From NCBI GenBank assembly GCA_023433405.1, contig JAEZCT010000067.1, positions 13,478-77,477 of the forward strand: 64,000 bases of DNA, read 5' to 3'. The first letter of the stretch is position 1. Each line of letters begins with the position of its first letter. Both the position numbers and the translations under genes were made by a program. The notes beneath the pieces are model-generated. The model was not told where the DNA came from and made no database searches. It worked only from the letters and a program-made list of their open reading frames with translations. Below, piece after piece: positions 3,938 to 43,933 of the stretch. The DNA is from Bacillota bacterium. GTDB taxonomy: Bacteria > Bacillota > Clostridia > Oscillospirales > Ruminococcaceae.

Positions 3938-3974
3938 ACACAAGCCGGCCCGCGTTATGCGGGCCGGCTTGTGT
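3938..3974. terminator. Bidirectional intrinsic terminator between cheW and leuB
   Basis: A 16-bp GC-rich stem ACACAAGCCGGCCCGC/GCGGGCCGGCTTGTGT with a 5-nt loop. A T-run follows on the minus strand. Confidence 0.7.
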
Positions 3975-4032
3975 GGTATTGGTGTATGATTACTGCCGGC
4001 TCCACAATGAAACCGGCAAAGAGGTAAGCAGG

Positions 4033-5103: not shown

Positions 5104-5142
5104 AGTATCAGTTCCTTTCCTTTGCTGGCGTTATGCCGTGTT

Positions 5143-5616
5143 CTATTTCGCGAGTGATTTTAACAGTCCGCCCGCCGCCACAATGTTCTGAAGGAACTCG
5201 GGAAAGGGTGCAAAGACGGTGGTAATGCCCTTGGTGTGATTGGTAAGCTCCCCTTTGGCAAAATCGATGCTCACCTTGTCACCCTCGTTAATCTCCGCGT
5301 CGCACTCAATAATAGGCAGCCCGATGTTGATGGCGTTGCGGTAAAAGATGCGCGCGAAGCTTTTCGCCACCACGCAGGCTATGCCGCTGGTTTTAATGGC
5401 AAGGGGCGCGTGCTCACGCGAGGAGCCGCAGCCAAAGTTAGCCCCGGCCGCGATGATGTCGCCCTCCTTCACACGGTCAACAAAGGTTTTATCAATATCC
5501 TCCATACAGTGCGCGGCAAGGGCCTTGGGGTCGGCGGTGTTGAGGTAGCGGGCGGGGATGATGACATCGGTATCGACGTTATCACCATATTTAATCACGG
5601 TAGCGTTTGAAATCAT
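5143..5616 (-). CDS. leuD: 3-isopropylmalate dehydratase small subunit
   Basis: Aconitase swivel-domain sequence ([28 protein letters not shown]). The start is trimmed to the internal ATG (MISNATV). Confidence 0.92.
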
Positions 5617-5712
5617 GGTAATACCCCTTTCGGTTTTATTGGGACTCTGGAGAACCTGTTCTCGTTTTAGCATACCTGAAGAATACGCACTGGCTTTCAC
5701 CAAATGCGGCGG

Positions 5713-6972
5713 TTACAGCGCGGCGGGGTCAAAGATCTTGCCCGCAAGGGCGGAGGCCGCCGCCACGGCGGGGCTTGCCAGATACACCTCGCTGTCGGGG
5801 TGACCCATGCGCCCCACAAAGTTACGGTTGGTGGTGGCGACGCAGCGCTCACCCGGAGCAAGTATGCCCATATGTCCCCCAAGGCAGGGGCCGCAGGTGG
5901 GGGTGCTGACAATACAGCCGGACTCAATAAAGGTTTTAAGCAGACCCTCCTCCATCGCCTCCAAATAAATACGCTGAGTGGCGGGAATTACGATGGTGCG
6001 CACGTTTTTCGCCACCTTTTTTCCCTTGAGGATTGCTGCGGCCTCCTGCAAATCGGATAACCTTCCATTGGTGCAGGAGCCGATTACCACCTGGTCGATT
6101 ACCACCTCGCCGGTGTTGTCGATGGTTCTGGTGTTGCTGGGCAGGTGGGGGAATGCGACGGTGGAGCGCAGGGCGGAAAGGTCGATGTCGTACACCGCGT
6201 CATAGGGCGCGTCGTCGTCCGCCGTGTAAACAACCGGCTTGCGGTCGCTGTGTTCTGCAATATAGGCGAGAGTCTTTTCATCTACGGGGAAGATGCCGTT
6301 CTTGCCGCCCGCCTCAATTGCCATATTGGCGACGCAAAGGCGGTCATCCATGGTCAGGTTTGCGACACCCTCGCCGGCAAATTCCATGGATTTATATAAG
6401 GCGCCGTCCACGCCAATCATGCCGATGATATGCAAAATAAGATCCTTGCCCGAAACATGCCTTTGGAACTTGCCGCGGAGGTTGAATTTGATGGCGCTTG
6501 GCACCTTAAACCATGCCTTGCCATACGCCATACCCGCCGCCATATCGGTAGAGCCTACGCCGGTGGAGAATGCGCCCAGCGCGCCGTAGGTGCAGGTATG
6601 GCTGTCGGCGCCAATGATGACGTCACCTGCCACCACCAGGCCTTTTTCGGGCAGCAGCGCGTGCTCCACACCCATCTCACCTACGTCAAAAAAGTTCTCA
6701 ATACCCTGCTTGCCGGCAAAGAGGCGAATTTGCTTTGATTGCTCGGCCGCCTTGATGTCCTTGTTGGGGGTAAAATGGTCCAGCACCAGCGCAATGCGTT
6801 TTTTATCAAACACATCGCCGCAGCCTGCCTTTTCGTACTCGTTAATTGCAACGGGGGAGGTGATGTCGTTACCCAGCACAAGGTCAAGGTTTGCCATAAT
6901 CATCTCACCCGCCAAAACCTCCTGCTTTCCGCAATGGTTTGCAAGGATTTTCTGCGTCATCGTCATTGCCAT
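5713..6972 (-). CDS. leuC: 3-isopropylmalate dehydratase large subunit
   Basis: Aconitase-family motifs ([28 protein letters not shown]). It lies directly upstream of leuD. Confidence 0.95.
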
Positions 6973-7138
6973 TATCCTTTTCCAGCCTTTCCAATTAGAT
7001 ATTTAGAGGTCAGAGGGCAGAGGACAGACTTAGGCGGCTTATCACAGGATTCTGCTTTTTGGGGATATGCCTTGGGATGGGGGACGCTTCCTTTCCGGTC
7101 ACCAGCCGCTGCCCATAAGCCTGCGCCCTCTTGCGGGG

Positions 7139-10536: not shown

Positions 10537-10590
10537 CTATTATCCGATAAACACGCGGATTTTTTCTACTCTTTTTTAGAAGGTTAGGGT
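10537..10590 (+). repeat. Family A palindromic interspersed repeat, truncated copy A1 (ilvD-leuA spacer)
   Basis: ctattatccgata...cacgcggattttttctactcttttttagaaggttag matches the two ends of the full copies, with the centre deleted. Confidence 0.6.
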
Positions 10591-19970: not shown

Positions 19971-21674
19971 GTGATGGTCCTGGCAATGGGGAATATTGTA
20001 GAGCTTAATACCGCCAACTGCAAAAATTGCTACCGCTGCATCCGCGAATGCCCCATCAAGGCCATTCGCTTTCACAACGACCGTGCCTCCATTCTGGAGA
20101 GCGAATGTATAGAATGCGGCATCTGTGTGGAGGTGTGCCCCCAGACCACCCGTCGGGTGCGCAACGATACAGCGGCTGTGAAGCAGCTGCTTTTAGAGGA
20201 AAAGCCGGTATACCTTTCCCTTGCTCCCTCTTGGGTAGGCTGGTATGAAGGGGTTGCGTTCTCCCGCATTTCGGCGGCGCTCAAGCGCCTTGGCTTTGCG
20301 GGGGTGGAGGAGACTGCCATCGGAGCGGCGGAAAGCTCGCGGGAATACGCGCGGCTGATTGAAGAGGGGCAGATGGAGAACATTTTTGTCACCGCCTGTG
20401 CCTCTGCCGTGATGCTGGTGGAACGGCATTACCCCGAGCTCATTGATATGCTGGCGCCCGTATCCTCCCCGATGATGGCTCATGCGCGTATGATGCGCGA
20501 AACCTATGGGGAAATACGCGTGGTGTTTGCGGGGCCCTGCATCTCCAAGATGAACGAAACCGGGGACGCGCTGGCGGGCGGGCTTGTAAACAACGCCATT
20601 ACCTTCACGGCGCTGGATGAATGGCTGGCGGAGGAGGGCGTTGGGCTGTACGAGGAAGACGCGGCCGCCGCCGGGGTAGCCCGCCCCATCGCGCGCCTTT
20701 ACCCTAAGCCCGGGGGTATTCTTGCCACCGTTCCGGTGCAAACCAAAGGGTATGCGCGTATTGCCGTGGATGGGCTTTACCGCTGTGTGGAGCTGCTTAA
20801 TACCTTTCGCCAGGAACGGCCAAAGGGCTATTTTATCGAGATGAATATCTGCCCCGGGGGCTGTGTGGGCGGTCCGGTTTTTCGTTTGACGGGCAAGAAC
20901 TCCCTTTTGACCCAGCGCCATGTAACGGCAGAGCGGATGCCGCAGGATGAGCGTCCCGCGCCCGACGCGGGGTTACAGCTGCCCCACCCCCGGGTGTTTG
21001 CAAACCGCGGATTAAAGCGAGAGGCTCCCTCCGAGCAGGATATTTTGCGCATACTGTCAAGGATTGGCAAGTATACGGCGGAGCAGGAGCTTAATTGCGG
21101 CGGCTGCGGGTATAAAACCTGCCGCGAAAAGGCGGCGGCTGTGTACTTCGGCAAGGCGGATATTAACATGTGCCTGCCTTTTTTTCGTGAGCGGGCGGAA
21201 AATATGTCAAACATTGTGCTCGAGCATTCCCCAAACGCCATCTTTGTGCTGGATAAAAGCCTGCTGGTGCAGGAATTAAACCCCCGCGCAGAGGCGATTT
21301 TACAGGAAAAGCGCGCGCAGGCCATCGGTCTGCCTGTCTCACTGTTTTATGGCGATGGCGGCTTTGAGCGCGCGGTGAGCGACAAAACCGTAACCCAAAA
21401 GCTTAACGTACCCGAGTATAACCGCACCTATGAGCAGACCATCACCTACATCCCCGAGCATAAAAGCTTTATAGTACTGCTAAAGGATATTACCGAGGAT
21501 GAGTCGCGGGAGCAGGCGCTGGACGAAATGCGCAGCCACACCGTGGATATTGCGCAGAAGGTCATTGAAAAGCAGATGCGCGTGGCACAGGAGATCGCGA
21601 GCCTACTCGGCGAAACCACCGCCGAAACGAAGGTGGCGCTTACGAACCTGAAGAAATCGATGACGAACCTTTAG
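19971..21674 (+). CDS. Putative sensory [FeFe]-hydrogenase (HydS-type: 2x[4Fe-4S], H-cluster domain, extra Cys4, PAS)
   Basis: Two CxxCxxCxxxCP motifs. H-cluster motifs are variant TACASAV, GPCISK and EMNICPGGCVGGP, followed by CGGCGYKTC and a PAS-like C-terminus. The exact start is uncertain. Confidence 0.8.
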   Translation: MMVLAMGNIVELNTANCKNCYRCIRECPIKAIRFHNDRASILESECIECGICVEVCPQTTRRVRNDTAAVKQLLLEEKPVYLSLAPSWVGWYEGVAFSRISAALKRLGFAGVEETAIGAAESSREYARLIEEGQMENIFVTACASAVMLVERHYPELIDMLAPVSSPMMAHARMMRETYGEIRVVFAGPCISKMNETGDALAGGLVNNAITFTALDEWLAEEGVGLYEEDAAAAGVARPIARLYPKPGGILATVPVQTKGYARIAVDGLYRCVELLNTFRQERPKGYFIEMNICPGGCVGGPVFRLTGKNSLLTQRHVTAERMPQDERPAPDAGLQLPHPRVFANRGLKREAPSEQDILRILSRIGKYTAEQELNCGGCGYKTCREKAAAVYFGKADINMCLPFFRERAENMSNIVLEHSPNAIFVLDKSLLVQELNPRAEAILQEKRAQAIGLPVSLFYGDGGFERAVSDKTVTQKLNVPEYNRTYEQTITYIPEHKSFIVLLKDITEDESREQALDEMRSHTVDIAQKVIEKQMRVAQEIASLLGETTAETKVALTNLKKSMTNL

Positions 21675-21757
21675 CATTATACCTTTTTAGTTCGCGTCAA
21701 AACCCGTAAAATCGGAGTTTTTGTCCCTTTTAATCAATTATATAGTATAGGATAATT

Positions 21758-22100
21758 GAGTATCCCCGTACCCCCAGCACCAAAGTAGCCTTGTGTGGCA
21801 GGTGTGGGAAAAAAGGAAAAACTAAAGACTAGGGCGAAAAGCAAGGGCAAAATACGCGAGGCACCAGGATTTTGCCGAAGGTGCTTCGTCTCACAAACCG
21901 TGCTTCGTTTGCCCTTGTTTTGAGCTGGGTGCAGGGTGTCCCTGCTTCGCTTTTACTAAATTGCTTACTTTTCTCGAACAAGAAAAGTAAGCCGCCTGTC
22001 GGCGCGGGTGCCGACGTTCCAACAATTTTATGATGATTACCCAAAAGCCGACCAATTCACGAAGTTTATAAGGTCGGTTTTGAAAACTCCAATAAACCAT
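21758..22100 (+). repeat. Family B structured interspersed repeat, copy B1 (between hydS and the PP2C gene)
   Basis: It aligns along its whole length with 28834-29170 and with the reverse complement of 24887-25275. It contains hairpins CTTACTTTTCT/AGAAAAGTAAG, GTCGGC/GCCGAC and CAAGGGCAAA/TTTGCCCTTG. Confidence 0.85.
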
Positions 22101-22234
22101 AATTAGAAAATGATTTATGACAGTAATTTTATCTTGAGTGTTTTTGGTTTTTAAATCCATGAAAAATGAGTGTATATAGCGTGAATCAATCGGCACAGGA
22201 CGGATTATGGGGAAATGGAAGGGAGGAGGACGCA

Positions 22235-23419
22235 ATGCCCTACAGGCGGCAGCTGTTTATCGATGCTGCAAGCGACAGCCTAAACCACGCGGGTGAGGAA
22301 TTGTGCGGCGACAAGGTGGAGTTCTTTCGCGGCGAGGACTTTTTTCTCGCGGTGCTGGCGGACGGACTGGGCAGCGGGGTGAAGGCGAACATCCTTGCAA
22401 CCCTCACGAGCAAGATTATCGCCACCATGCTCTCGCAGGGGGCGACCATCGGCGAGGCGGTAGAGACCATTGCCAGCACACTGCCGGTATGCAGCGAGCG
22501 CGGCATTGCCTATTCCACCTTTACAATAGCCAACGTGCGCAGCGACGGCAGGGTATATCTTGCGGAGTTTGATAACCCCTCTCTCGTTCGCTACCACAAA
22601 GGCAAGCTGTGTTACATCGAGCGCGCGGAGCGGGAGATTGGCGGCAAGCATGTATTTGTAAGCGAGTTTTGCGCGGAGCCGGAGGATATGCTCATCATGT
22701 TCTCGGATGGTGTGGTACACGCCGGGGTTGGCAGGCTTTTGGATCTTGGCTGGCAGTACGAAAACATTGTCACCTATATCAGTGAAAACATTAAGCCGGA
22801 TATGTCCCCCCGCGAGCTGGTTCGCCGGCTGCTGTCGGCGGTAAATACCCTGTATATGGAGCGCCCGGGGGACGACTCTACCGTGTGCGCGCTGCTGTTA
22901 AAGCCCAAGCGTGTGGCGACGGTGATGGTCGGCCCACCCATTAACCGGGAGATGGACGAGACGATGGTCAAGCGCCTGATGTACTCGGATGGCCTTCGCG
23001 TGGTGTGCGGCGGCACCACCTCTCAGATACTAAGCCGTGTTACCGGCAAGGAGCTGCAGGTGAGCGTCGATTATGAGAATCCCGCCGTCCCTCCGACCGC
23101 GCGCATCTCGGGCGTGGATTTGGTTACCGAAGGGGTTTTAACCATCGGGCGGTGCATCGATATCATCCGCGGCATCAACACGGCGGGTCCGGATGGCTGG
23201 GATCGGGTCTCCATGTATAAAAAGGACGGCGCGGCACAGCTCTCCCGTCTGTTGCTCGAGGACTGTACCGAGATATGCTTTTTGGTAGGCCGCGCCATCA
23301 ATCCCGCGCACCAGAACCCGGGTATGCCGGTTTCGCTGGGGCTTAAGCTTAACCTTATCAAGGAGCTTGCGCAGGAGCTGAAAAAAACGGGCAAGGCTGT
23401 TAGTGTTGAGTATTTCTAG
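22235..23419 (+). CDS. SpoIIE/PP2C-family protein phosphatase with an uncharacterised C-terminal domain
   Basis: GEELCGD...LADGLGSGVKA...FSDGV are PP2C/SpoIIE motifs. The start is set at the ATG 5 nt after GGGAGGAGG, because the longer ORF-track N-terminus overlaps repeat-derived sequence. Confidence 0.8.
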   Translation: MPYRRQLFIDAASDSLNHAGEELCGDKVEFFRGEDFFLAVLADGLGSGVKANILATLTSKIIATMLSQGATIGEAVETIASTLPVCSERGIAYSTFTIANVRSDGRVYLAEFDNPSLVRYHKGKLCYIERAEREIGGKHVFVSEFCAEPEDMLIMFSDGVVHAGVGRLLDLGWQYENIVTYISENIKPDMSPRELVRRLLSAVNTLYMERPGDDSTVCALLLKPKRVATVMVGPPINREMDETMVKRLMYSDGLRVVCGGTTSQILSRVTGKELQVSVDYENPAVPPTARISGVDLVTEGVLTIGRCIDIIRGINTAGPDGWDRVSMYKKDGAAQLSRLLLEDCTEICFLVGRAINPAHQNPGMPVSLGLKLNLIKELAQELKKTGKAVSVEYF

Positions 23420-23512
23420 GCAATGCTTGCATTGCTGTAATGCTTGCATTGCTCTATTATAATGGACGGATAAAATGTCAACAATCGGAGAGAGCTATAA
23501 AGGGGTTAGTCT

Positions 23513-24115
23513 ATGAATAAATATGAGAAACGTTCTATTGAAGCTTACAATAAGAAAGCAAAAAATTATGAAGATACCTTTGATGGAAAATTTACCTCGA
23601 AATTTAAAACCATGCTCATTGAAACCGCGAAAATAAATACTGGAGATAATATTATAGATATTGCGTGCGGGAATGGAAGACTCCTCAATATGTTTAAAAG
23701 TAGATATGAAATCAAAGGTTTCGGAACAGATATCTCCAATGAAATGGTAAACCAAGCAAAACTGATGAACCCCTCAATGAATTTTTCAGTTGCAAGCTGT
23801 GAGGAGATACCTTTTCCAGACAATTCGTTCGATATAATTACAGTTTGCGCGGCTTACCACCATTTTCCGGATGTCGCTAAATTCGCAAGAGAGGCTTGCC
23901 GTGTGTTGAAGCAGGGTGGAACCATTTATATTGCCGAGGTATATTGTCACCCGGTTATACGAATTTTTTGCAATCCATTCCTCCCTTTGTTAAAGGAGGG
24001 TGACGTGAAGTTTTACTCGCCCTATGAAATTATAAATACATTAAGCAGCGCCGGGTTTATATCCCAGACTCACATAAAAAGAAATCATATTCAAATCGTA
24101 AGTGCCTGTAAGTAA
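23513..24115 (+). CDS. Class I SAM-dependent methyltransferase (in a low-GC cassette)
   Basis: Motif I DIACGNGRL and a Methyltransf_11-like layout. The local base composition is clearly more AT-rich than the flanks. Confidence 0.85.
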   Translation: MNKYEKRSIEAYNKKAKNYEDTFDGKFTSKFKTMLIETAKINTGDNIIDIACGNGRLLNMFKSRYEIKGFGTDISNEMVNQAKLMNPSMNFSVASCEEIPFPDNSFDIITVCAAYHHFPDVAKFAREACRVLKQGGTIYIAEVYCHPVIRIFCNPFLPLLKEGDVKFYSPYEIINTLSSAGFISQTHIKRNHIQIVSACK

Positions 24116-24175
24116 CCTAAGATGATAGTTTCGTGTATGTTTATAAAAGTACCCAGAGAAAAACCAAGTCTGATG

Positions 24176-24245
24176 CTCAAGGACTGCAACGGGAGATGCG
24201 TTTTGGTAGGCCGCGCCATCAACCCCGCGCCAAAATCCGGGTTAT
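24176..24245 (+). pseudogene. Relic fragment homologous to the 3' part of the PP2C gene
   Basis: A ~70 nt imperfect copy of 23255-23325. It translates to LKDCNGRCVLVGRAINPA, versus LEDCTEICFLVGRAINPA in the intact gene. No complete ORF surrounds it. Confidence 0.5.
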
Positions 24246-24429
24246 CCATTTATGAAGCATACCAATATTTCATCGCAACGGGTTGCACACGGCATGAAAT
24301 TAGCAATGCAGTATGAGGATGAAAAAAGCCAACTAACGACTGTATACGCGATTACCAAAGAGGAATACAACAGCATACCCAAGCACTGAGCAAATTTTGC
24401 GTTCCATTTATGATAGGAGGATTACCGTT

Positions 24430-24852
24430 ATGGATGAGCTGAAAATCAAAATGAGTGCTTTTACGCTGGACTGCATCGACCACCATGAGCTGGCGAAGTT
24501 CTATGCAAAGCTGCTTAACTGGGAGGTGCCGTTCTATGACGAAGACTATGCGGTCGTATGTGCTCCGGGGGCAAGCCAGGCAGCGTATCCCGGGATAACG
24601 CTCCAGCGAAACCCCGGGTATCAGCCTCCTGTGTGGCCGGAGGAGCCTCGCGCGCAGCAGCAAATGGCGCATCTCGACTTGGCGGTGAATGATTTGGGAA
24701 AAGCGGTTGAATACGCAATCCTTTGCGGGGCGCGAGTTTCAGATAAGCAATTTTCTGATAGCTGGACAGTGATGCTTGACCCCGCCGGGCACCCTTTTTG
24801 CTTATGTCTGCTGCAGCATGTGTTTGATAGCCCCGATTTTGCGCTGCGATAG
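24430..24852 (+). CDS. VOC/glyoxalase-family protein
   Basis: Glyoxalase-like fold sequence (FTLDCIDHHELAKFY...HLDLAVNDL...DPAGHPFCL). AGGAGG lies upstream of the trimmed start. Confidence 0.8.
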   Translation: MDELKIKMSAFTLDCIDHHELAKFYAKLLNWEVPFYDEDYAVVCAPGASQAAYPGITLQRNPGYQPPVWPEEPRAQQQMAHLDLAVNDLGKAVEYAILCGARVSDKQFSDSWTVMLDPAGHPFCLCLLQHVFDSPDFALR

Positions 24853-24886
24853 ATTTTCGTTTATATTAATAACCGATTTATTTAGG

Positions 24887-25275
24887 CGGCTTTTAGTTAA
24901 TCATCATCAAATTGATGGAACGTCGGCTCCCGCGCCGACAGGCGGCTTACTTTTCTTGTTCGAGAAAAGTAAGCAATTTAGAAAAAGCGAAGCAGGGACA
25001 CCCTGCACCCAGCTCAAAGCAAGGGCAAACGGAGCATAGCTTGTGAGACGAAGCACCTACGGCGCAAGCGCGTAAAGCTAAGTGGAGTAGCTGCGTTACG
25101 CGCTTGCGAAAATGATAAAGAATTTTTCCGAAAATTATTTATCATTTTTACCCTTCGGCAAAATCCTGATGCCCCCCGTATTTTGCCCTTGCTTTTCGCC
25201 CTGGTCTTTAGTTTTTCCTTTTTTCCCACACCTGCCACACAAGGCTACTTTGGTGCTGGGGTACGGGAGATATCC
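24887..25275 (-). repeat. Family B structured interspersed repeat, copy B2 (inverted, with a 94-bp internal insertion at 25058-25151)
   Basis: Its reverse complement aligns with B1 and B3. The extra segment interrupts the CGAAG/CTTCG hairpin loop. Confidence 0.85.
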
Positions 25276-25300
25276 GATTAATATGGCAAGTTAATTGCTT

Positions 25301-25437
25301 AATAATAATTGCCGATTTAAAAGTGTAATACTAATCTCCTCAAAAAGAGTCGATAAAAACCCGCGCGAAAAGCTTTGGTTAATGGCTTTTCACGCGGGTT
25401 TTATTTTAACTGCTATACTTTGTGAGGGAGTTAGTAT
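25301..25437. repeat. Family A palindromic interspersed repeat, copy A2 (with an extra partial arm)
   Basis: atactaatctcctcaaaaagagtcgataaaaacccgcg...cgcgggttttatt...gagggagttagtat, preceded by a solo arm fragment ttgccgatttaaaagtgta. Confidence 0.8.
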
Positions 25438-25464
25438 TATACGACAGTGCCATTGAACCGACCG

Positions 25465-26499
25465 TTACCCGGCCCCAGAAGAGGCATCGGTCGGCGACTG
25501 CCCCGTTACCGGCTGGGAGGAGGGCTCCTGCTCAAGAGTAATCCCCGGGTAAAGCTCCTGTGAGATGCGCTCCAGCTCTTCCGCTACGCGAAGACTTTGC
25601 CGCTCGAAAACAATGTTGTTTACGGTGTAAAGACGGTCGTTTTTCACCGCCGAAAGCCCGCCCAGGGTCTTGCTCTTTTTCAGTGCCTCCAAATCCACAT
25701 CGCTGCCTAAGAGCAGAACATATGGCTTTGCCTCGGCAGTTTTTTCGGCGGGAAACTGCCAGTTTACGCCCCCCGAGGCGACGTTATCAAGACCAAGAAC
25801 CGCCAAAAGCTTCCCCGGGTAGGTATCGGGCGTAGCGGCAATAGAGACAGTGTCAATCAGGTACGCGGCCGTATGGGCTTGGGCGTCCTCCTTGGTGGCG
25901 ACGTAGGCCTCTATGGATTTTGTCAGGCGGTCAAGACGGGCGATAAACCTTGCTTTGTATTGCTCACCAAGCTCCACCCCCGCTTCCGCCCCCTCCATCA
26001 GCCTGCAAATCTTTGCGTACAGCTCGCCGGTAGAGGCGACGTCATACGCGCGCGCAATGGTCACGATGGCGGCGCCCGTCTGCTGCAGCTTAATCATCGC
26101 CTCGTTGGTGGGGGGCGCCTGCATTACAATTAAATCCGGCGCAAGCTCGGCAATCTTTTTGGTATCCAGCATCATAGGGGTTCCCACCGTGGGCAGGGAG
26201 TTCACCGATTCTGGGGTGTCGCAGTAATCGGTGCGCCCCACCAGTCGGCTCTCAAAACCCAGCTCGCAGAATATTTCGGTCAGCGAGGGCGAAAGTGAAA
26301 CCACGCGCTGGGGCTTTGCCTCTATATACACATTATCAAAATCCAGCGGATAGTTGATATCCACCGGCTCACTGGACTGTACGGAGGACGGTTGGGAGCT
26401 TGCCGCGCCGGGACCTAGCACCGAGCAGCCCGCAAGCGCCGTCATACACAGCACAAGTATGGCAGCCGCGCCTTTTCTTATCACATGCTTTTTTTTCAT
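25465..26499 (-). CDS. ABC transporter substrate-binding lipoprotein (siderophore/cobalamin-type periplasmic binding fold)
   Basis: Lipobox LAGCSV after a signal peptide and a PBP type-8-like sequence. The start is trimmed to MKKKHVI. Confidence 0.75.
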   Translation of the reverse strand: MKKKHVIRKGAAAILVLCMTALAGCSVLGPGAASSQPSSVQSSEPVDINYPLDFDNVYIEAKPQRVVSLSPSLTEIFCELGFESRLVGRTDYCDTPESVNSLPTVGTPMMLDTKKIAELAPDLIVMQAPPTNEAMIKLQQTGAAIVTIARAYDVASTGELYAKICRLMEGAEAGVELGEQYKARFIARLDRLTKSIEAYVATKEDAQAHTAAYLIDTVSIAATPDTYPGKLLAVLGLDNVASGGVNWQFPAEKTAEAKPYVLLLGSDVDLEALKKSKTLGGLSAVKNDRLYTVNNIVFERQSLRVAEELERISQELYPGITLEQEPSSQPVTGQSPTDASSGAG

Positions 26500-26616
26500 T
26501 TTCGTACCGGTTCCTTTCCGGCGCGCGGTTAGGGCGCGCGGTAATGCCAACTTCTATTGTACCGCCTGCGGCGAAGCGTTGTCAAACGGCAGAAGATATT
26601 CCCAACATATCGTCGG

Positions 26617-27942
26617 TTACCGCGCCTTTACGCCTTTTGCCTTCGGGCTCCTTTTCAGCTTTGAGGTGAACAGCTTGTCGGAGGAGAATACCCGAACCGC
26701 CAAGAACATGGAGATTACAAGGCAAAGGAGCTGATATCCCACGCCGAAGGCCACCAGCGCGTAGTTTTTAAAGACGATAGCCGAGGTGGCAATAAAGGTG
26801 TGGGTAAAGGGGATAATGTACAGCGCAGCCCGCAGCACTATGGGCAGCGAGGGGATATCGGTAAACATCGAGATCAGGTAAGGCGCAAGCACACAGAACA
26901 TGATGGGGGTAACGGCGGTCTGCACCTCTTTGATATCCTGTGCCATAGCTCCCAGCATGGTGGAGATGGAAAGGGCTATGAGGATAGTAATAAACAGCTC
27001 AAGCCCTACGATTAAAAACTGTAAGGGGGAAAGGGACAGCCCCAGTGAGGATAATGCAGAGGCGATTCCGCCGGTTGAGAGCTGCTCGGCCTCCGGCGCG
27101 CCCGTGCTCATGCTGCCTATCCCGCCCATCATGCCCCCCATATAGCTTGAGAAGCCGAACAGGAACACCAGCGACATAATCAGCGAACCGATACCCGCTG
27201 CGGTCATCTTGGCAAACAGCACCGACAGGCGCGAAACGGGGGTGGAAAGCAGGGTTTCCAAGGTTTTATCGCCCTTTTCGTTCGCGATGGCGGTGGCGGT
27301 CATCTGCGACGCCATCATGACAATCATAAAGATAATAATGGGAACAAAGATGGTTTGCGACATGGCAATGGATTGAACGGCCGAGGAGTTGACCTGTGCG
27401 TTTTTATCGTTTACATGGGTGTATTCGTACAGAGTCACGGGCTTTTCCAATAATGCGGTATCGGTAATGCCGCTTTTGGCAAACAGGTCGGCCTTCACCA
27501 GCTCGCCGATTTCGTCTGCGGCATTCTGCACCTGCGAGGAGGTCATAACCGCCAGGACGGAAAAGGATTTGAGGCGCGAGTGGAGGGATAATACCGGCGC
27601 TTTGCCGTCTGCCAGGCTTTGGGCAAACCCTTCTTCAATAACCAGCACCGTGTCGCTGCCTGCCGCCTCGGCCGCGGTAAACGCGCTGTCTCCCGCGTTG
27701 GCTATAAGATTGAGTTCATACCCGCTTTCGGTAAGCCGGTCGAGCATGTTGCTTGAAGCATCGGTCCGGTCAAGGTCGCATATGGTTACCTGACGCTGTT
27801 TTTCCGCCGCAGACTGGGTTGCGTCACCAATAAACTGCCCGAGCGTGGAGAAAATGACAACCATAATTACCATAGGCAGCAGGTTTTGCAGGGTGAGCAT
27901 GTCGCGAAGCTCTTTCCTCAGCAGAATTCCAAAATGGTTCAT
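26617..27942 (-). CDS. ABC-2 type transporter permease
   Basis: One N-terminal TM, a large extracytoplasmic loop and a C-terminal multi-TM block. The start overlaps the ATPase stop codon by 4 nt. Confidence 0.8.
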   Translation of the reverse strand: MNHFGILLRKELRDMLTLQNLLPMVIMVVIFSTLGQFIGDATQSAAEKQRQVTICDLDRTDASSNMLDRLTESGYELNLIANAGDSAFTAAEAAGSDTVLVIEEGFAQSLADGKAPVLSLHSRLKSFSVLAVMTSSQVQNAADEIGELVKADLFAKSGITDTALLEKPVTLYEYTHVNDKNAQVNSSAVQSIAMSQTIFVPIIIFMIVMMASQMTATAIANEKGDKTLETLLSTPVSRLSVLFAKMTAAGIGSLIMSLVFLFGFSSYMGGMMGGIGSMSTGAPEAEQLSTGGIASALSSLGLSLSPLQFLIVGLELFITILIALSISTMLGAMAQDIKEVQTAVTPIMFCVLAPYLISMFTDIPSLPIVLRAALYIIPFTHTFIATSAIVFKNYALVAFGVGYQLLCLVISMFLAVRVFSSDKLFTSKLKRSPKAKGVKAR

Positions 27943-28679
27943 GCGCGGTTCACCGCCCTTTCAAACACCTCTTCCAGATTTTGCGCACCGTATTTTTCCT
28001 TTAGCTCCTCCGGTCTGCCGCACTCCAACAGTACCCCGTCGTTGATGATGCCCACCCGGGAGGAGATAAACTCAATCTCCAGCATATTATGGGAGGTGAC
28101 GAGAATGGACATGCCCTCATCCGCCAGGGCTTTTAACATGCGGCGAATCTCCAGCGCGTTGATAATATCCAGCCCGCTGGTGGGCTCGTCCAAAATAGCG
28201 AGCCTTGGGTTTGACATGACGGCGCGGGAAAGCAGCAGCTTGCGTATCATGCCCCGGCTGTAGGTGTTTATTTTATCCTGCAGCCGCTCGCCCAGCCCGC
28301 AGATTTCTACGGCGCGGGCGGTCATCGCGTCCCGCTCTGCCCGGGTTTTGGCAAACAGCGCGGCCATAAAGCTTAAGTACCGCGAGCCCGTCATACTTTT
28401 GTAAGCACCCGCCTCATCGGGCAGGTAGGTGATGTCACGGCGAACCTCAGCCGGGTTACTGGTTACGCTGACGCCGTTTATCCGCGCATCGCCGGAGGAA
28501 GGGGTAATAAGCGTGGCAATGACGCGGATGGTGGAGGTTTTGCCCGCGCCGTTGGGGCCGATCAGGGCAAAAATTTCACCCTGCCCCACCGAAAAGCTTA
28601 CCCCCTTAACCGCTTGCTTTTTCCCATAGTTTTTACACAGGTTGTCCACAACAAGGGTGTCGGACATAATTGTCATCAT
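27939..28679 (-). CDS. ABC transporter ATP-binding protein
   Basis: Walker A GPNGAGKTS, signature YSRGMIRKL and Walker B ILDEPTSGLD. Confidence 0.9.
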   Translation of the reverse strand: MMTIMSDTLVVDNLCKNYGKKQAVKGVSFSVGQGEIFALIGPNGAGKTSTIRVIATLITPSSGDARINGVSVTSNPAEVRRDITYLPDEAGAYKSMTGSRYLSFMAALFAKTRAERDAMTARAVEICGLGERLQDKINTYSRGMIRKLLLSRAVMSNPRLAILDEPTSGLDIINALEIRRMLKALADEGMSILVTSHNMLEIEFISSRVGIINDGVLLECGRPEELKEKYGAQNLEEVFERAVNRA

Positions 28680-28833
28680 TCCTTTCTTAGGTCCGGCAGA
28701 TAAGCCGGATGGAGGAAAATTTACATTTTGTCGCTTGACTGCGCTGCTTACAGGTTATACTATAATGTGTGTTCGCGCAATGAAATTATTGCCTGTTTCT
28801 GTCGTTTATTTTTTACTGGTGTATACGATAATC

Positions 28834-29170
28834 GAGTATACCCCGTAACCTCAGCACCAAAATAGCCTTGTGTGGCTGGTGTGAGAAAAAAGGAAGAACT
28901 ACAGACCAGGGCGAAAAGCAAGGGCAAAATACGGGGAGCAACAGGATTTTGCCGAAGGTGCTTTGTCGAAAAAGCTTTACTTCGTTTGTCCTTTCTTTGA
29001 GTTGGGTGCAGGGTGTTCCTGCTTCGCTTTTGCTTACTTTTCTCGAACAAGAAAAGTAAGCCGCTTGTCGGCGCGGGAGCCGACGTTCCTACAACTTGAT
29101 GATAGTTCCCTAAAAGCCGACCGATTCACGAAGTTTATAAGGTGGGTTTTTGGAAACTCCGGTAAACCAT
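28834..29170 (+). repeat. Family B structured interspersed repeat, copy B3 (between divergent ABC ATPase genes)
   Basis: Collinear with B1 from gagtata(c)cccgta to aaaccat. Indels relative to B1 break every ORF. Confidence 0.85.
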
Positions 29171-29353
29171 ACAGCAGTCGCGACAGACAAAGGGCTTATA
29201 CGATGATATTATAGCATGCTTAACGCTACAAATTAAGTATTTGCTGTTAATAATTTGGCCTGAATTTTATCCGGGAAAGCAGGGAGCCGGAAGCAGCCCC
29301 TCATGGAGCTTCGGGCGGTTCTGCGCAAAAACAGAGAGGGAAAAGGACGCGTT

Positions 29354-30061
29354 ATGGAGACAGAAAGGCTGATTGAAATCAGGGATGTGTACAAGATATA
29401 CAATCCCGGAGAAAACGAGGTGCGCGCGCTTGACGGCGTGAATCTCACCATCCACACCGGCGAGTTTGTCGCGATTATCGGGCAATCGGGCTCGGGCAAA
29501 AGCACGCTGATGAATATGCTGGGATGCTTGGACGTACCCTCCTCCGGGGAGTACTTTCTGGCGGGCAAGGATGTATCCAAAATGACTGACGATGAGCTGT
29601 CCGACATCCGAAACGAGCAGATCGGCTTTATCTTCCAGGGCTTTAACCTCATCCAAAGCCTTGACGCCATGGAGAACGTCGAGCTGCCGTTAATCTACCG
29701 CGGGCTGTCAAAGGATGACCGCCACAGGGTTTCGCAGGACTCACTGGGGCGTGTGGGGCTGTTAAACCGTATGCACCACAAGCCCACCCAGCTTTCCGGC
29801 GGCCAGCAGCAGCGTGTGGCAATAGCCCGCGCCATTGCGGCGCGCCCGCCCATTATTCTTGCCGACGAGCCTACCGGCAACCTCGACTCCAAGTCCGGCG
29901 TAGATGTAATGCGTATCCTGCGGGAGCTGCACGCCGAGGGTCGCACCATTATCCTGATCACACATGACAACAAGATTGCGGACACCGCAGAGCGCATTGT
30001 ACGCATTATGGACGGCAAAATAAGCGAGGATTTTAGAAACGAAAACTACGTTGCGAACTGA
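29354..30061 (+). CDS. ABC transporter ATP-binding protein (MacB/LolD-like), with no adjacent permease
   Basis: Walker [24 protein letters not shown] and [11 protein letters not shown]. The start is trimmed to METERLIEI. Confidence 0.9.
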
Positions 30062-30208
30062 TTGCCACAGCCGCGTTCACAAGGCAAAACCTCCCCTTAT
30101 CCTATTATTTTATTAAAAGTAAAGGGAAAAAGGGGCTTTAGTCTTGCATGGATGCATTCACGCAAAACGGTGAAAATGAAATTAGCAAAAACCAGTATAA
30201 AACCCCTA

Positions 30209-30730
30209 TTAAACGGGGAAGAATATTTTAACAAGAAGGGTACTCATAATAAAGCCGGCACAGTCTCCTGCCAGCGCGCATCCCACGGTATAGCGCGTCT
30301 TGCTAATGTTGGCGGCACCAAAGTAAACGGCAATGGTGTAAAAGGTGGTTTCCGTAGAGCCCATCATCACGCTTGCCACCCGTCCCGCCAAGCTGTCGGG
30401 GCCGTTGCTTTTTAAAATATCCTGTACAATCGCAAGCGCCCCGCTGCCTGAGATGGGGCGAAGCAGCACAAGGGGGACCACCTCCTTAGGCATACCCAGC
30501 AGGTTTGCCCCGGGCTCGGCGGCGTTTGTCAGCACATCCAGCGCGCCGCTTGCGCGGAACATTCCGATTGCGGTAAATATGGCTATTAGTGCAGGCAGGA
30601 TATTGATGGTAGTCTCCACCCCCTCCTTGGCGCCTTTTACAAACTCGCCGAACACATCCACCTCCCGATAGATGCCAAACAGAAAGATAGCCGCAATGGT
30701 TACAGGGATTACGAGTGCGGTTAGGTTCAT
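30209..30730 (-). CDS. spmB: Spore maturation protein B (nucleoside-recognition domain)
   Basis: Membrane protein of SpmB type, directly downstream of spmA. Confidence 0.8.
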   Translation of the reverse strand: MNLTALVIPVTIAAIFLFGIYREVDVFGEFVKGAKEGVETTINILPALIAIFTAIGMFRASGALDVLTNAAEPGANLLGMPKEVVPLVLLRPISGSGALAIVQDILKSNGPDSLAGRVASVMMGSTETTFYTIAVYFGAANISKTRYTVGCALAGDCAGFIMSTLLVKIFFPV

Positions 30731-32714: not shown

Positions 32715-34496
<1,782 letters not shown>

Positions 34497-34512
34497 TCAC
34501 TTGTATGATAGT

Positions 34513-34617
34513 AATACTATTCTCCGATAAAAGTGTTGATAAAAATCCGCGTCAAAATCCATAAATTAAAGATTTTGACGCGGATTTTTATACACTTTTT
34601 AATTGGATAATAGTATA
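34513..34617 (-). repeat. Family A palindromic interspersed repeat, copy A3
   Basis: atactattctccgataaaagtgttgataaaaatccgcgtcaaaatcc...gattttgacgcggatttttatacactttttaattggataatagtat. Confidence 0.9.
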
Positions 34618-34656
34618 AAAAAGCCGTGATACCGTTTGCAGACGGTATCACGGCTT
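34614..34656 (-). terminator. Intrinsic terminator of the CinA-sortase-SpoIID gene
   Basis: AAGCCGTGATACCGT, a 6-nt loop, ACGGTATCACGGCTT, followed on the minus strand by TTTTATA. Confidence 0.7.
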
Positions 34657-34710: not shown

Positions 34711-37700
34711 TTATTTCACAATCGCGCCCGTATAGTAATGCTCAAGAATTTGGATATAATCCCAGTTCTCATTGCGGGCGTAGCCATCCGCGCCCATCTG
34801 GCTCATTCCCACTCCGTGACCGTAGCCGTAGCTTGTAAAGGTAAAGGAGCCGCCGCTGTACTCTACATCAAACTTAGTGGAGCGCAGGTCATACACGCCG
34901 TTGTTTACCAATACCTTTTCGCGTACCACGCGTGCGGTGGTAGAAATGCCGCCAAGGGACATCTTATTGTTATAGCCGCCGCTGGTATAGCTTTGTATCT
35001 CAAACCAGCCGGAGGGGTCGCCTTCCGGTTCCCGCCCGAAGCAGCTTAAAATCTTTTCTCTAACATAGCTTTCGCTGCGTGTAATGCTGCGCTGGTAGCC
35101 CGAAGCCTTATAATCATAAGCGCTCTCCACGCTCACCAGGTGGGAATAGGCGCCGCCCCATACATCCTTGGAGGAATTGGTGGCATCCGCCGCTATCGCA
35201 AAGTAGGGGGTGTAGGCTACCTTGTTGTTGACATATACAAGCTCATCCAATACCGCGGCAACGGCGTTTTTAATCTTGGTGGTGGGGGTGCGAAGACCCA
35301 CCGTCGGGGTGCTGCCGCTGTTCAAGGTGCTGACGATATAGCTGTGCGCGGCCACTGCCTGTGCCTTAAGCGCCTCGGTAGCGATGGTATCGTTCATCTC
35401 ATTGGCAACCACCTTGCACAGGATGGTATAGGCATCGTCGGTGACATAGCTGCCCCCCGCGTAAACCGTCAGCTTGTCGGAGGTGCTGCCCAGCACCTCG
35501 CTGCTGGTTTGCCCTTCATTCCAGAGGTCCTCATCGTCGCTGATGATAACCTCCTGCCAGGTGGAGGAGGTTGCCTTGGAGGAGCTGCTGGTTGCCTTGG
35601 AAGAGCTGGGTGCCTTGGAGGAGGAGCTGGGCTCCTCCTCGGAGGATTCCTCCTCAGACGATACGCTGGAGGCCTTGGAGGAGCTGGGCGCCTTAGAGGA
35701 TGATGGCTCGGCGCTGCTGGAGGCCTTGGAGGAGCTTATATTGGAGGAGCCTTGCTCCGAAGAACTCGGCAGCTCAGACGATTCCTCCGAGCCTTGCTCA
35801 ATGGAGGATTCTATGCTGGAATCCGGCCCGTCATCGGGCTGAGATTCCAGCGGCGGCGGGGTTTCGCCGTTGGGCAGCCCCTCCGCATCCAGGTCTAAAT
35901 CAGGCTTTGTGCCGCCATACAGCTTGTACCATACATCGGGATACAGCGGCTGTGGGTTTTTAACGGCGGAAATCACATCCACCGATTCACTCTCGCCCTC
36001 CCGCACCTTGCGGGCCACCACAACATACCTTGCGTCGTCAAACTCGTAGGTGCAGGTGGATAGGGTTAAAAATTCATCGTTTGCGTTTGCGTCCACACTG
36101 GTGTTAAGAATAGACCGCGCCTTCACCTGCTTAATAAAGTTCGTTACCTCGGTGTCGGTTTGCGGGTCGATAAATGAGGTATAGTCAAAGATACGTCCGT
36201 GAGAGGGGTTAACATTGGTAATGAACACCGACATCACCTTATAGCTTCCTTTGCCGTACACCGTGTTAAAGGTAATGACAGGATGTTTGCGGTAGTAGTC
36301 CAACTGGCTGTAGTTTATAAGCTCCCCAAACATCTGGCCGTCCTTCATGTTGTGGCCGTACACCACAATGTTGGTGCTGCTTTTTACATCCACTCGGCAG
36401 TCCACAAACGGAATGCCGTGGCGGTTATCCTGCCTTAAGAAGTTGCGGCGCAGGTAAAAGTCGTTATCCGCCGCTTGTACCACCGGGTACTTCAGCCCGG
36501 TTCCCGCAAGCTCTATAAAGCCCATAACGTCAGAGTTTACGGCATAAAGCGATGCAAAATCATCTATGTAGTCGTCGGGGTAGCCCTCAGGTCGGCTTCC
36601 CGAGCCATACAGGGTATTAAGCTCGTCCACATGGCGTTGGTTTAAATAAGCGCTGCCGTAAAAATAGGCAAGGTAGCCAGCCGCAGCAAAAAAAACAATT
36701 GCCAGCAGCAAAGACAACAGCTTTAAAAATACGCGGGCTTTACTGTCTCCCTTTACAGGGAACATATTCTCCGCAAACCGCTTGCCTAAGTCCTTTTTCT
36801 TCTCCGGCTCGGGCGGGGGGGACTCAGGGGGTCTGCCCTGAGACAGCCTGCGCGGCTTTCGTTCATCCTCCCCGGGCTGATCCGGTTCTCTTACCGGCAG
36901 CGCAAGCCGTTCGCCGCCGTACATTTTCCTCGCCATTGCCGCGGCTTCCACATAGGTTTTGGTTTTTCCCGGGGTAAAGGGGCACATCTTTTCCCTGGCC
37001 TCCTCGGGACGGTCGAGATACAGTCTCACCATCTCAAGCGCAGTGACGGCAGCCTTTGCCCGAATCTCATCGCGCCCGTACTGCAGCGGGTCCAGCCGAA
37101 GTTGCTTTACCCAAACGCCCGACTGGTCGCACATGGAGATATATACAAGCCCCACGGGCTTTCCGTTTTCATCCGTATTCGGTCCCGCCACGCCGGTAAT
37201 GCCTACGCCAATATCGGCGGGCGCACCCTGCATAACCCCTGCCGCCATAGCTATGGCGGTCTCCTCGCTAACGGAGGTGTATTGCTCTATCAGCTTGGGG
37301 GAAACCCCCAGCTTATCGCGCTTGATATTGTCGGCATAGGCGGAAACGCCGAACTCAAATACCGCCGATGAGCCGGAAACCTCGGTAATCTTCTCAGAAA
37401 GAAGTCCGCCGGTGCAGGATTCCGCCGTGGCAATCTTCATGCCGCGCTTGCGCAGCCGGTTTACCACCATGCCCGCAAGGCTTTCGTTCTCACCGCCGAG
37501 AATATGGGTTGCAAGGGCGCCTGTCATAATGGCCTTTGCCGCGGCATCCGCCTGTGCAAGCGCTTCCGCCCGCCCGGGAGCCACCGCAAAGATGCGCATG
37601 GCAAGCTCGCCCGCATCCTCAAACAGCGTAACCGAAAGCGACATGGGCAGCACCATCTCGTCAAGCGCCGCCTGTGCCTCGGCATAGTCAATATCATAAA

Positions 37701-38238
37701 GCCGAAGAATGCGGTGCGCGTACTCCCCGCCGGTGCCGCTGCGGATGTAAGGGCAAACCGACTGCATAAACATTGCCGAGTATTCCTCGACGCGGTCGGG
37801 CAGCATAATAATCGCCTGACCCTGAGATTCCATGGAGAAACCGGAGATGGCACCCAGTGTGTTTATAAACACACGCGCATTTTCAGGGATAAGCGCAAGG
37901 CGGATATCCTCCTCCACAAACTGCCGTCCGGTTTCCTCCCACACCTCACGCAGCCGTGCCACGCTGGGGTTGTGGGGTAAAAGCGCAATATCCAGCGCGT
38001 CACACAGCAGCTCCTTGGCAAGCGGCCGGTTAAGGTCGCTTTGCCCGCCCACCGTAATAATAATATCGCAATGATCTATGGCGTCGCCCACCGCGTCCAA
38101 AAACGCGTCGGGACGCTCCATAGAGACCGACGCGCTGACTGTCTCGATGGAAAACGCCCGCAGCTCATTAATAATTAACTTTAAGTTTCTTTCTCTATTC
38201 GACCCGCCGGGGCCGATGTGCAAAACACATGCCTTCAC
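34711..38238 (-). CDS. Tri-domain fusion: CinA (MoCF-like plus PncC-type NMN amidohydrolase), TM, class-B-like sortase, Ser-rich linker, SpoIID/LytB domain
   Basis: A single uninterrupted 1175-codon ORF. Motifs: CinA (IATAESCTGGLL), TM FLKLLSLLLAIVFFAAAGYLAYF, sortase (VVYGHNM...LSTC), SpoIID (AQAVAAHSY...GHGVGMSQMGA). Confidence 0.8.
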   Translation of the reverse strand: MKACVLHIGPGGSNRERNLKLIINELRAFSIETVSASVSMERPDAFLDAVGDAIDHCDIIITVGGQSDLNRPLAKELLCDALDIALLPHNPSVARLREVWEETGRQFVEEDIRLALIPENARVFINTLGAISGFSMESQGQAIIMLPDRVEEYSAMFMQSVCPYIRSGTGGEYAHRILRLYDIDYAEAQAALDEMVLPMSLSVTLFEDAGELAMRIFAVAPGRAEALAQADAAAKAIMTGALATHILGGENESLAGMVVNRLRKRGMKIATAESCTGGLLSEKITEVSGSSAVFEFGVSAYADNIKRDKLGVSPKLIEQYTSVSEETAIAMAAGVMQGAPADIGVGITGVAGPNTDENGKPVGLVYISMCDQSGVWVKQLRLDPLQYGRDEIRAKAAVTALEMVRLYLDRPEEAREKMCPFTPGKTKTYVEAAAMARKMYGGERLALPVREPDQPGEDERKPRRLSQGRPPESPPPEPEKKKDLGKRFAENMFPVKGDSKARVFLKLLSLLLAIVFFAAAGYLAYFYGSAYLNQRHVDELNTLYGSGSRPEGYPDDYIDDFASLYAVNSDVMGFIELAGTGLKYPVVQAADNDFYLRRNFLRQDNRHGIPFVDCRVDVKSSTNIVVYGHNMKDGQMFGELINYSQLDYYRKHPVITFNTVYGKGSYKVMSVFITNVNPSHGRIFDYTSFIDPQTDTEVTNFIKQVKARSILNTSVDANANDEFLTLSTCTYEFDDARYVVVARKVREGESESVDVISAVKNPQPLYPDVWYKLYGGTKPDLDLDAEGLPNGETPPPLESQPDDGPDSSIESSIEQGSEESSELPSSSEQGSSNISSSKASSSAEPSSSKAPSSSKASSVSSEEESSEEEPSSSSKAPSSSKATSSSSKATSSTWQEVIISDDEDLWNEGQTSSEVLGSTSDKLTVYAGGSYVTDDAYTILCKVVANEMNDTIATEALKAQAVAAHSYIVSTLNSGSTPTVGLRTPTTKIKNAVAAVLDELVYVNNKVAYTPYFAIAADATNSSKDVWGGAYSHLVSVESAYDYKASGYQRSITRSESYVREKILSCFGREPEGDPSGWFEIQSYTSGGYNNKMSLGGISTTARVVREKVLVNNGVYDLRSTKFDVEYSGGSFTFTSYGYGHGVGMSQMGADGYARNENWDYIQILEHYYTGAIVK

Positions 38239-40693: not shown

Positions 40694-40960
40694 TGTTACA
40701 AGGTCCCCTTCCCCGCAAAACGCGCGAAGCCCTGCCGCCCGCCCTGCCTGATGATTTTTGTATACCCGCCGCGAAAGCGCCGCTGTAAGGCGGTTTTGCG
40801 CCGGGCAGTGTATCATTAATGACGCGTTTTATTGACCAAGATTATGCTCTCATAATTATACCTTATCCGCGCTGCTAATACAAATAAATTAATAAAACTT
40901 CCACATATTTAAGCACCCTTGGGGAAAAATACTTCCATATGGTCATCCATCTTTCTTCTA

Positions 40961-41070
40961 ATACTAACAACCGATAATAAAGTGTATATAAATCAAGTAT
41001 AACGCTTTGGTTTATGGGCCTTCACCCGGATTTTTATCTACAACGCTACACTTTTTGAGGGGATTAGTAT
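40961..41070 (+). repeat. Family A palindromic interspersed repeat, copy A4
   Basis: atactaacaaccgataataaagtgtatataaatcaagt...ttcacccggatttttatcta...ctttttgaggggattagtat. Confidence 0.85.
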
Positions 41071-41139
41071 AAGGTCGCCTTAGCTTTTCGCGAGACTGAA
41101 AAAATTCCTCAAACGTACAGGAAAGGATTGTTTCGGAAT

Positions 41140-43800: not shown

Positions 43801-43879
43801 GGTTTTATCAAACATTTTGGGCGCGACAGAGCTTGCGCGGCAGCTGGGATGGATTTTATTATAGCACATTTTCTTTTAT

Positions 43880-43933
43880 CCTAATAACCGATTAGAAAGT
43901 GTATAGTGTATAAATGTGTAGGGGATTAGTATT
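43880..43933 (+). repeat. Family A palindromic interspersed repeat, internally deleted copy A5
   Basis: ctaataaccgattagaaagtgtata...gtgtaggggattagtat retains only the two terminal arms. Confidence 0.65.

Follow-up and report, generated by a model that had tools for sequence, protein, structure and literature searches.

Family B repeats in the analysed window

The stretch of DNA analysed here, called the window below, comprises 64,000 nucleotides of a Bacillota bacterium (assembly GCA_023433405.1, contig JAEZCT010000067.1, positions 13,478 to 77,477), and all positions are those of the window unless another contig is named. Three copies of a noncoding repeat of about 355 bp, termed Family B, are located in it. 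The first complete copy, B1 (21745-22101, plus strand, 357 nt), is preceded by a HydS-like gene with an Fe-hydrogenase domain (19971-21674), whose product of 566 aa also has Fer4 and FeS domains, and followed by a SpoIIE/PP2C phosphatase gene (22235-23419). The inverted copy B2 (minus strand, from about 24862 or 24887 to 25285) is situated downstream of a periplasmic-binding-protein gene (25465-26550, minus strand), which converges with a glyoxalase-like gene. The second complete copy, B3 (28821-29171, plus strand, 351 nt), is the most divergent one (about 85% identity) and separates the end of an ABC-2 (ATP-binding cassette) transporter operon on the minus strand, at 28679, from the divergently transcribed ABC ATPase gene on the plus strand (29303-30061).

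All three copies were recovered by repeat finding, both over 20-31 kb and over the whole window, and by BLASTN of the region against itself. Between B1 (21745-22101) and B3 (28821-29171) BLASTN gave 85.8% identity over 359 aligned positions (E = 7e-105). B1 aligned to B2 in two parts, 21761-21881 to 25272-25152 with 95.1% identity and 21874-22050 to 25063-24887 with 93.2%, while two segments of B2 and B3 could be aligned with 84-90% identity. Pairwise identity among the three copies thus spans 84-95%, and with E-values of 1e-43 to 1e-105 the similarity is far past chance. The original prediction had placed three copies near these positions, and both methods confirmed them.

Repeat finding returned no copies other than B1, B2 and B3 in either range, and none was found by a profile hidden Markov model (HMM) of the three copies in the window or in the 10 kb to its left and 0.7 kb to its right on contigs of the same organism. 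Known copies of Family B therefore number three, all within 7.4 kb, in about 76 kb of genome examined. Calling the repeat multicopy, as had been done, is overstated, as this cluster is all that is known.

B2 is longer than the other copies, and its BLASTN alignment to B1 is split, because of an insertion of 96 nt at 25056-25151 (minus strand). Unique in the window, the inserted sequence contains two hairpins and has an imperfect direct repeat, CCGAAGG / CCGTAGG, at its boundaries. Within the central arm described below it occupies the region of the apical loop, and the closing helix of the arm stays intact. The final 60 nt or so of B2 in the B orientation (24862-24920) are divergent or truncated. 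B1 and B3 have identical ends on both sides, and the copies share discrete common boundaries. They occur in both orientations, and no two of them share an intergenic spacer or have related flanking sequences.

Coding potential and database searches

No open reading frame (ORF) is conserved across the copies. In the six frames of Family B, stop codons fall at different places in B1, B2 and B3, and the only frame that the copies partly share, on the minus strand, is disrupted in B3 by an 8-nt indel and in B2 by a stop as well as the 96-nt insertion. A six-frame pseudo-protein query, aimed at spurious ORFs called in other copies of Family B, had no match among 5.8 billion clusters. For an internal ORF of 71 aa, HMMER against 1.84 billion representatives yielded one chance match to a repetitive protein. 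With no conserved ORF and no homologue in two large protein searches, the repeat can be regarded as noncoding, as had been proposed from the sequence.

Rfam 15 gave 0 matches in the whole window at gathering thresholds, and at E <= 10 each copy of Family B returned hairpin noise only, with no match to HEARO. A tRNA origin was discarded as well, no tRNA-like sequence being found. BLASTN in distant mode against phage and plasmid collections showed no similarity to Family B, and four scans of viral contigs for Family B words were likewise negative.

When 185,579 species genomes were scanned for exact 21-mers, a single match appeared, in an ABC gene of a Zixibacteria metagenome-assembled genome (MAG), and was dismissed as chance; this collection of representative genomes evidently does not contain the source species. 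Three matches of a hairpin-pattern scan of metagenomes proved to be unrelated terminator-like hairpins. Such exact-word scans need near-identical words, and divergent relatives of Family B could escape them. One human-gut metagenome contig (L003, 6280-6495) carries a tandemly duplicated unit of about 100 nt with two hairpins of the B type, first GCAGG..CCTGC and then GCTTACTTTTCT..AGAAAAGTAAGC, in sequence and order as in the middle of Family B. As nhmmer supports the hairpins only (E about 0.005), this likeness probably reflects convergence. Family B is without a detectable relative among the searched resources, although its kind, a lineage-specific noncoding structured intergenic repeat, is well known.

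Insertion sites in related genomes

The host is an uncultured, gut-type spore-forming member of the Oscillospiraceae-like Clostridia, with Acetanaerobacterium and Zongyangia among its relatives. Of the flanking proteins, PP2C has its nearest named relatives in Zongyangia hominis, Provencibacterium and Paludicola (about 70% identity) and the ABC-2 permease in Acetanaerobacterium (64-67%). Neither Family B nor a second repeat of the window, Family A (see below), could be found in about 85 kb of DNA from relatives (Zongyangia, Acetanaerobacterium and MAGs).

At the B1 site, four relatives keep the order of the HydS-like and PP2C genes, which are 14, 14, 46 and 102 nt apart. In the window the two genes are separated by 560 nt, of which 357 nt are B1. 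The divergent ABC ATPase/ABC-2 pair at the B3 site is also kept in the relatives, with spacers of 325-372 nt. In the window this spacer is 623 nt long, B3 makes up 351 nt of it, and without B3 its length resembles that of the relatives. Since both spacers are short and free of Family B in the relatives, B1 and B3 are lineage-specific insertions; this is the strongest single result of the analysis.

B1 and B3 end 133 and 131 nt, respectively, before the start codons of their downstream genes. The intervening sequences are unrelated, and the near-equal distances were therefore treated as coincidence.

The B2 site (24852-25465) differs in another manner. In three relatives (L019, L020 and L022) the binding-protein gene is followed by secA, while in the window the next features are Family A, B2 and then a block of glyoxalase, methyltransferase and PP2C genes. 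Replacement of secA by the Family A/B2/glyoxalase-like block places a synteny breakpoint at the repeats. Repeats often sit at rearrangement points.

A 75-nt fragment at 24168-24242 matches the PP2C gene at its 3' end (23247-23323) with 84% identity. It is contained in a 64-aa ORF (24122-24316) downstream of the methyltransferase gene and looks like a pseudogene-like duplicate, which suggests local rearrangement. The HydS-like/PP2C pair itself (19971-23419) is conserved across Zongyangia and related MAGs and probably represents a redox/H2-sensing signalling module.

Probable nature of Family B

Family B has discrete ends, has been inserted more than once, and two of its sites are empty in every relative examined. 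Most probably it represents what is left of a small lineage-specific mobile element without terminal inverted repeats (TIRs). More precisely, a TIR-less, non-autonomous dispersed repeat that hopped locally, or whose movement was catalysed in trans by an enzyme with its gene elsewhere, is the explanation we favour, with a probability of about 0.5. The mode of movement is inferred.

Several observations weigh against this explanation. For the TIR test, the first 35 nt were compared with the reverse complement of the last 35 nt by local alignment, and the scores were set against those of shuffled sequences. B1 scored 10 and B3 scored 9, values reached by 53% and 77% of the shuffles, and the 13-15 of 21 terminal matches that can be seen by eye were rejected in this test as chance. 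Family A reached a score of 32 in the same test, a value attained by 0 of 2000 shuffles. The flanks of B1 and B3 can be read as TA / element / TA, but the context is AT-rich and there is no empty site at base level; proteins of the relatives are 65-78% identical, and their empty sites cannot be aligned base by base. Neither a transposase nor a parent element was recognized by Pfam in 30 ORFs of the window, namely all genes in 19971-30415, 19 ORFs of at least 110 aa in 32715-63334, and 567-3410. Precomputed Pfam labels of the genes at 7.1-22.8 kb included no transposase either; the ORFs at 18-521 and 3442-7000 were left out of this check. The confinement of every copy to 7.4 kb, with none in the other 70 kb or so, is odd for a freely transposing element, and none of the explanations considered here fits this tight clustering well. 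Other assemblies of the same organism break inside Family B, one contig (L006) ending in B2 and another (L007) spanning B1 to B2, but three local copies suffice to explain such breaks, which are no proof of further ones. Finally, the exact-word scans of genome, metagenome and viral collections yielded chance or hairpin-only matches.

MITEs (miniature inverted-repeat transposable elements) are defined by terminal inverted repeats that match those of a parent insertion sequence (IS) and by target-site duplications. With its terminal inverted repeat at chance level, Family B is no classical MITE, in contrast to Family A of the same window, which has this hallmark. It does share with MITEs a small size (351-357 bp), the lack of a conserved ORF and the presence of several copies, here three, though all within 7.4 kb. 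Like Correia/NEMIS, RUP, Nezha, Chunjie and IMU elements, it is small, gene-less and intergenic, with a stable RNA fold and filled and empty sites between relatives; such elements can enter transcripts and alter expression. Of the structured MITE envisaged in the original prediction, the discrete noncoding inserted repeat is retained, given the shorter B1 and B3 sites in relatives, while the MITE label is not.

The literature describes non-autonomous elements 300-400 bp in length that fold very stably, such as bcr5 of 310 bp and IMU of 288 bp (PMC3184786). Bcr5 belongs to the interspersed repeats bcr1-bcr18 of the Bacillus cereus group, of which bcr1 has 155 bp (Kristoffersen et al. 2011, summarised in PMC3184786). 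The bcr repeats share with Family B that they are noncoding, 100-400 bp long, intergenic in either orientation and predicted to fold very stably; they are also lineage-restricted, with a genomic distribution that is not conserved between relatives. Some are transcribed, and occasional compensatory changes occur in them. Unlike Family B, with its three clustered copies and no demonstrable duplication, bcr1 is accompanied by direct repeats of 5 bp and occurs in tens to hundreds of copies. The bcr family (up to 310-400 bp) is the nearest descriptive match to Family B, a likeness in sequence not being expected.

Under the favoured explanation, Family B would have entered intergenic DNA on three or more occasions, all within a short distance. 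As no transposase is encoded by the scanned ORFs, this movement would have needed an enzyme encoded elsewhere. The many hairpins would be intrinsic to the element, either as recognition structures of a TIR-less system of the IS200/IS605 type or as an inheritance from a longer parent.

All three copies probably now lie inside host transcripts: B1 in the hydS-PP2C intercistronic region, B3 in the ABC ATPase 5' leader and B2 at the 3' end of the ABC-2/binding-protein operon. For B3, a promoter-like block, TTGACT-17-TACTAT (28735-28763, plus strand), is conserved in all relatives examined (Acetanaerobacterium-like) and lies about 58 nt upstream of the repeat, which makes a position within the ABC ATPase leader probable. 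On the minus strand, an extended -10 motif, TGCTATAAT (29216-29208), is also present in the relative locus L020 and suggests that the leader of the opposing operon crosses B3 too. The arrangement suggests promoters that face each other, with long overlapping 5' leaders for the two divergent ABC units and B3 between them.

In these transcripts the stems would probably act as incidental RNA structure only, through partial termination or changed transcript stability. As the relic of a non-autonomous element, Family B would have local meaning only, as a marker of recent insertion events and of a site of rearrangement. It adds about 350 nt of strongly folding RNA to the hydS-PP2C intercistronic region and likewise to the ABC ATPase leader, which may alter expression. 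The repeat also breaks metagenome assemblies.

Predicted secondary structure and the RNA alternative

Folding of the plus strand of B1 gave a minimum free energy of -119.7 kcal/mol (z = -4.7 against dinucleotide shuffles). The minus strand folds nearly as well (z = -4.05), as is to be expected of DNA palindromes.

Near the 5' end of B1, a hairpin at 21773-21808 (plus strand, as all following stems) is formed by CCCAGCACC ... GGTGTGGG with an inner GCC/GGC stem (helices 4 and 5). It is followed by the central arm (21834-21925, helices 7-9), in which a long-range helix of 16 bp, GCGAAAAGCAAGGGCAAA / TTTGCCCTTG..., encloses an apical GGCACC/GGTGC(TTCG) helix; three G.U variants and one mismatch were found in this arm among the copies. 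Next come a GCAGGG-TGT-CCCTGC hairpin with TTCGCTTTT behind it (21931-21945, helix 12), present in all three copies and weakly terminator-like, and a perfect 12-bp hairpin, GCTTACTTTTCT-CGAACA-AGAAAAGTAAGC (21963-21992, helix 13). The latter and the stem of the GTCGGC-6-GCCGAC hairpin (21998-22015, helix 14) are invariant in the three copies and are therefore uninformative on selection. A 3' hairpin, AAAGCCGACC ... GGTCGGTTTT (22044-22081, helix 15), occurs in B1 and B3 only, homology being lost in this part of B2. Every stem listed in the original prediction could be found: apart from the two invariant ones, GCAGGG-3-CCCTGC, the CAAGGGCAAA/TTTGCCCTTG long-range helix and the apical CGAAG/CTTCG are present, with G.U variants in B3. 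A mosaic of the REP/BIME type (repetitive extragenic palindromes and bacterial interspersed mosaic elements) was rejected as a description of Family B, as the GTCGGC-6-GCCGAC, GCAGGG-3-CCCTGC and 12-bp modules were found only inside its copies, the sole exception being a one-mismatch GCAGGG-3-CCCTGC match at chance level (56596-56610).

The copies were then compared on a strand-symmetric consensus structure (no G.U pairs), in which 94.7% of the cells are paired. Two pairs are changed on both sides, a count reached in 113 of 500 shuffles; with three sequences such a comparison has little power. The clearer of the two is a C-G pair of the 5' hairpin that is U-A in B3, and the second is located in the weak helix 11. 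Variable columns number 21 of 157 paired and 20 of 122 unpaired ones (p = 0.5). In the seven strongest helices all 7 one-sided changes give G.U on the plus strand and none gives A.C, but these helices were chosen post hoc; over all helices the ratio of G.U to A.C cells is 11:6 (p = 0.33), and a strand-specific excess of G.U was not accepted. No promoter common to the copies was found inside the repeat, and the shared terminator-like hairpin is weak. The hairpin-rich fold, as modelled, is a real property of the Family B sequence, while selection for it across the three copies is unproven.

These results bear on the alternative that Family B is a family of structured RNA genes or a cis-regulatory module, active from its plus strand on adjacent genes, namely those for the PP2C phosphatase and the ABC transporters, or on distant targets. 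The stability of the fold speaks for it, as do the G.U-only changes in the strongest helices (a post hoc choice), the C-G to U-A pair and the placement of the B2 insertion in an apical loop with the closing helix intact. B1 and B3 are moreover in sense orientation to their downstream genes, B3 following a conserved promoter-like block, and Bacillus bcr1 offers a precedent of a transcribed mobile repeat with compensatory changes (PMC3184786). However, covariation stays at shuffle level, stems vary no less than loops, the minus strand folds almost equally well, and neither an Rfam match nor a conserved internal promoter was found. The same sites in all relatives lack Family B, and B2 has neither a downstream gene in its orientation nor the 3' hairpin. 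A multicopy structured RNA acting on neighbouring genes, the other option of the original prediction, gained no positive support from these comparisons, which showed no strand asymmetry either, and we consider this alternative unlikely.

Still less probable is a reading in which Family B would be a mobile structured RNA gene, serving as a guide scaffold similar to omega-RNA in trans with a nuclease or recombinase, or as a riboregulator of about 320 nt. In the latter version it would have been copied beside the hydrogenase/PP2C pair and two ABC transporter units for their co-regulation. The G.U-only changes, the compensatory pair of the 5' hairpin, the tolerated loop insertion of B2 and the tight local clustering would agree with such a role. 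Were the structure selected, Family B would represent a large structured RNA family without Rfam counterpart that spreads by insertion, and it would deserve a place in surveys of gut Clostridia for mobile RNAs that bear a guide RNA or are regulatory.

Alternative origins of the copies

Gene-less, hairpin-ended elements of the IS200/IS605 family, known as PATEs (palindrome-associated transposable elements), have been described, some of them with omega-RNA scaffolds (PMC10055086). Family B resembles them in being structured, gene-less, a few hundred bp long and without TIR, with hairpins near its ends, and PATEs too depend on enzymes provided in trans. Under this alternative Family B would be a PATE, maybe one that supplies the omega-RNA scaffold for a TnpB or IscB nuclease encoded elsewhere. 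Its size would fit a left end joined to a right end that bears an omega-RNA, and omega-RNA-encoding PATEs are on record (PMC10055086). (G/A)TAT precedes the conserved core on its 5' side in all three copies, but this left-end motif is inside the region alignable between B1 and B3, which leaves the boundary ambiguous. Small hairpins at the left end and a GCCGACC/GGTCGG hairpin near the right end are dissimilar, unlike the ends of IS608-type elements. The orientation of the copies is mixed, no omega-RNA model, HEARO or other Rfam family is matched, no TnpA, TnpB or IscB was present among the window ORFs scanned, no matching IS200/IS605 ends were found, and a coding remnant is lacking in all frames. 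We therefore give the PATE alternative a low probability.

In Acetanaerobacterium elongatum, a partial Y1 (IS200-type) transposase gene was observed beside the orthologous ABC ATPase gene (L022, 1-245), from which it follows that IS200/IS605 elements exist in the clade; this fragment can be counted in favour of the PATE alternative.

Equally doubtful is an origin of the copies from a larger IS, integrative element or prophage located elsewhere, either as fragments of its ends or by internal deletion. B2 would then have kept its 96 nt, which are bounded by short direct repeats, while B1 and B3 would be deeper deletion derivatives, and the Family B search reached about 76 kb of genome, which leaves room for such a parent. 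However, B1 and B3 have identical ends on both sides, no protein-coding remnant is present, and no similarity to phages, plasmids or viral contigs was detected.

Local duplication without transposition, or gene conversion, as a by-product of regional rearrangement with no mobility or function of its own, would suit three copies within 7.4 kb of a rearranged region in which synteny is broken at B2 and a 3' piece of the PP2C gene is duplicated (24168-24242), but it is improbable in view of the different spacers, the unrelated flanks, the sharp common boundaries and the clean addition of B1 and B3 to otherwise conserved spacers.

Family A and its association with Family B

Family A is a near-perfect palindromic repeat of about 110 bp with a highly significant TIR (TAATACTAATATCCGAT...), found 12 times or more in some 76 kb of this genome and absent from the loci of relatives. 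It looks like a genuine MITE. Copies in the window were located at 25323-25440, 34509-34618, 40957-41072, 47979-48087, 48147-48255, 50770-50879, 56449-56570, 59820-59939 and 63458-63566, with fragments at 10552-10587, 43876-43905 and 58963-59021. Three more were found outside the window on contigs of the same organism, two on L017 (1947-2057 and 4760-4867) and one on L015 (14432-14535).

The original prediction had noted degenerate Family A ends abutting the copies of Family B and had taken this as a hint at a composite element. This is correct for B2, where a full Family A element (25323-25440) lies 38 nt from the left end of the repeat, a right-arm fragment (25302-25327) is found beside it and an A-arm-like end (24861-24879) on its opposite side. 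For B1 the evidence is weak: a degenerate A-like remnant lies directly upstream (21688-21745, plus strand), with E = 0.0065 in a 1.4-kb search and E = 0.54 window-wide. No Family A match adjoining B3 could be detected. Because Family A is present in roughly one of five intergenic regions, the association of the two families is non-significant, and with A-like debris at two of three copies only, a composite with Family A is weakly supported.

Both families belong to the same genome, are intergenic, are absent from relatives and have AT-rich termini with a loosely similar motif (GGATAAT..AGTAT), in addition to the contacts at B1 and B2. In contrast to the palindromic Family A with its TIR, Family B has three times the length, no symmetry and no TIR. 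The termini of Family B were also examined as TIRs of the Family A type and rejected, since the Family A profile gives them no score.

Other features of the window

The window as a whole is ordinary chromosomal DNA of a spore former, with genes for YpeB, SpoIID-like and SpoIIE-like proteins, a collagen-like protein, NrdD and the ilv/leu pathways. The collagen-triple-helix repeat gene is located on the minus strand at 32715-34442 and contains long 9-nt-periodic repeats at 33219-33947; the ENA contig k141_83131 stops near this gene. Adjacent to it, a single minus-strand ORF of 1175 aa (34711-38238) combines CinA/MoCF, sortase and SpoIID-like Pfam domains, which would be an unusual fusion if real.

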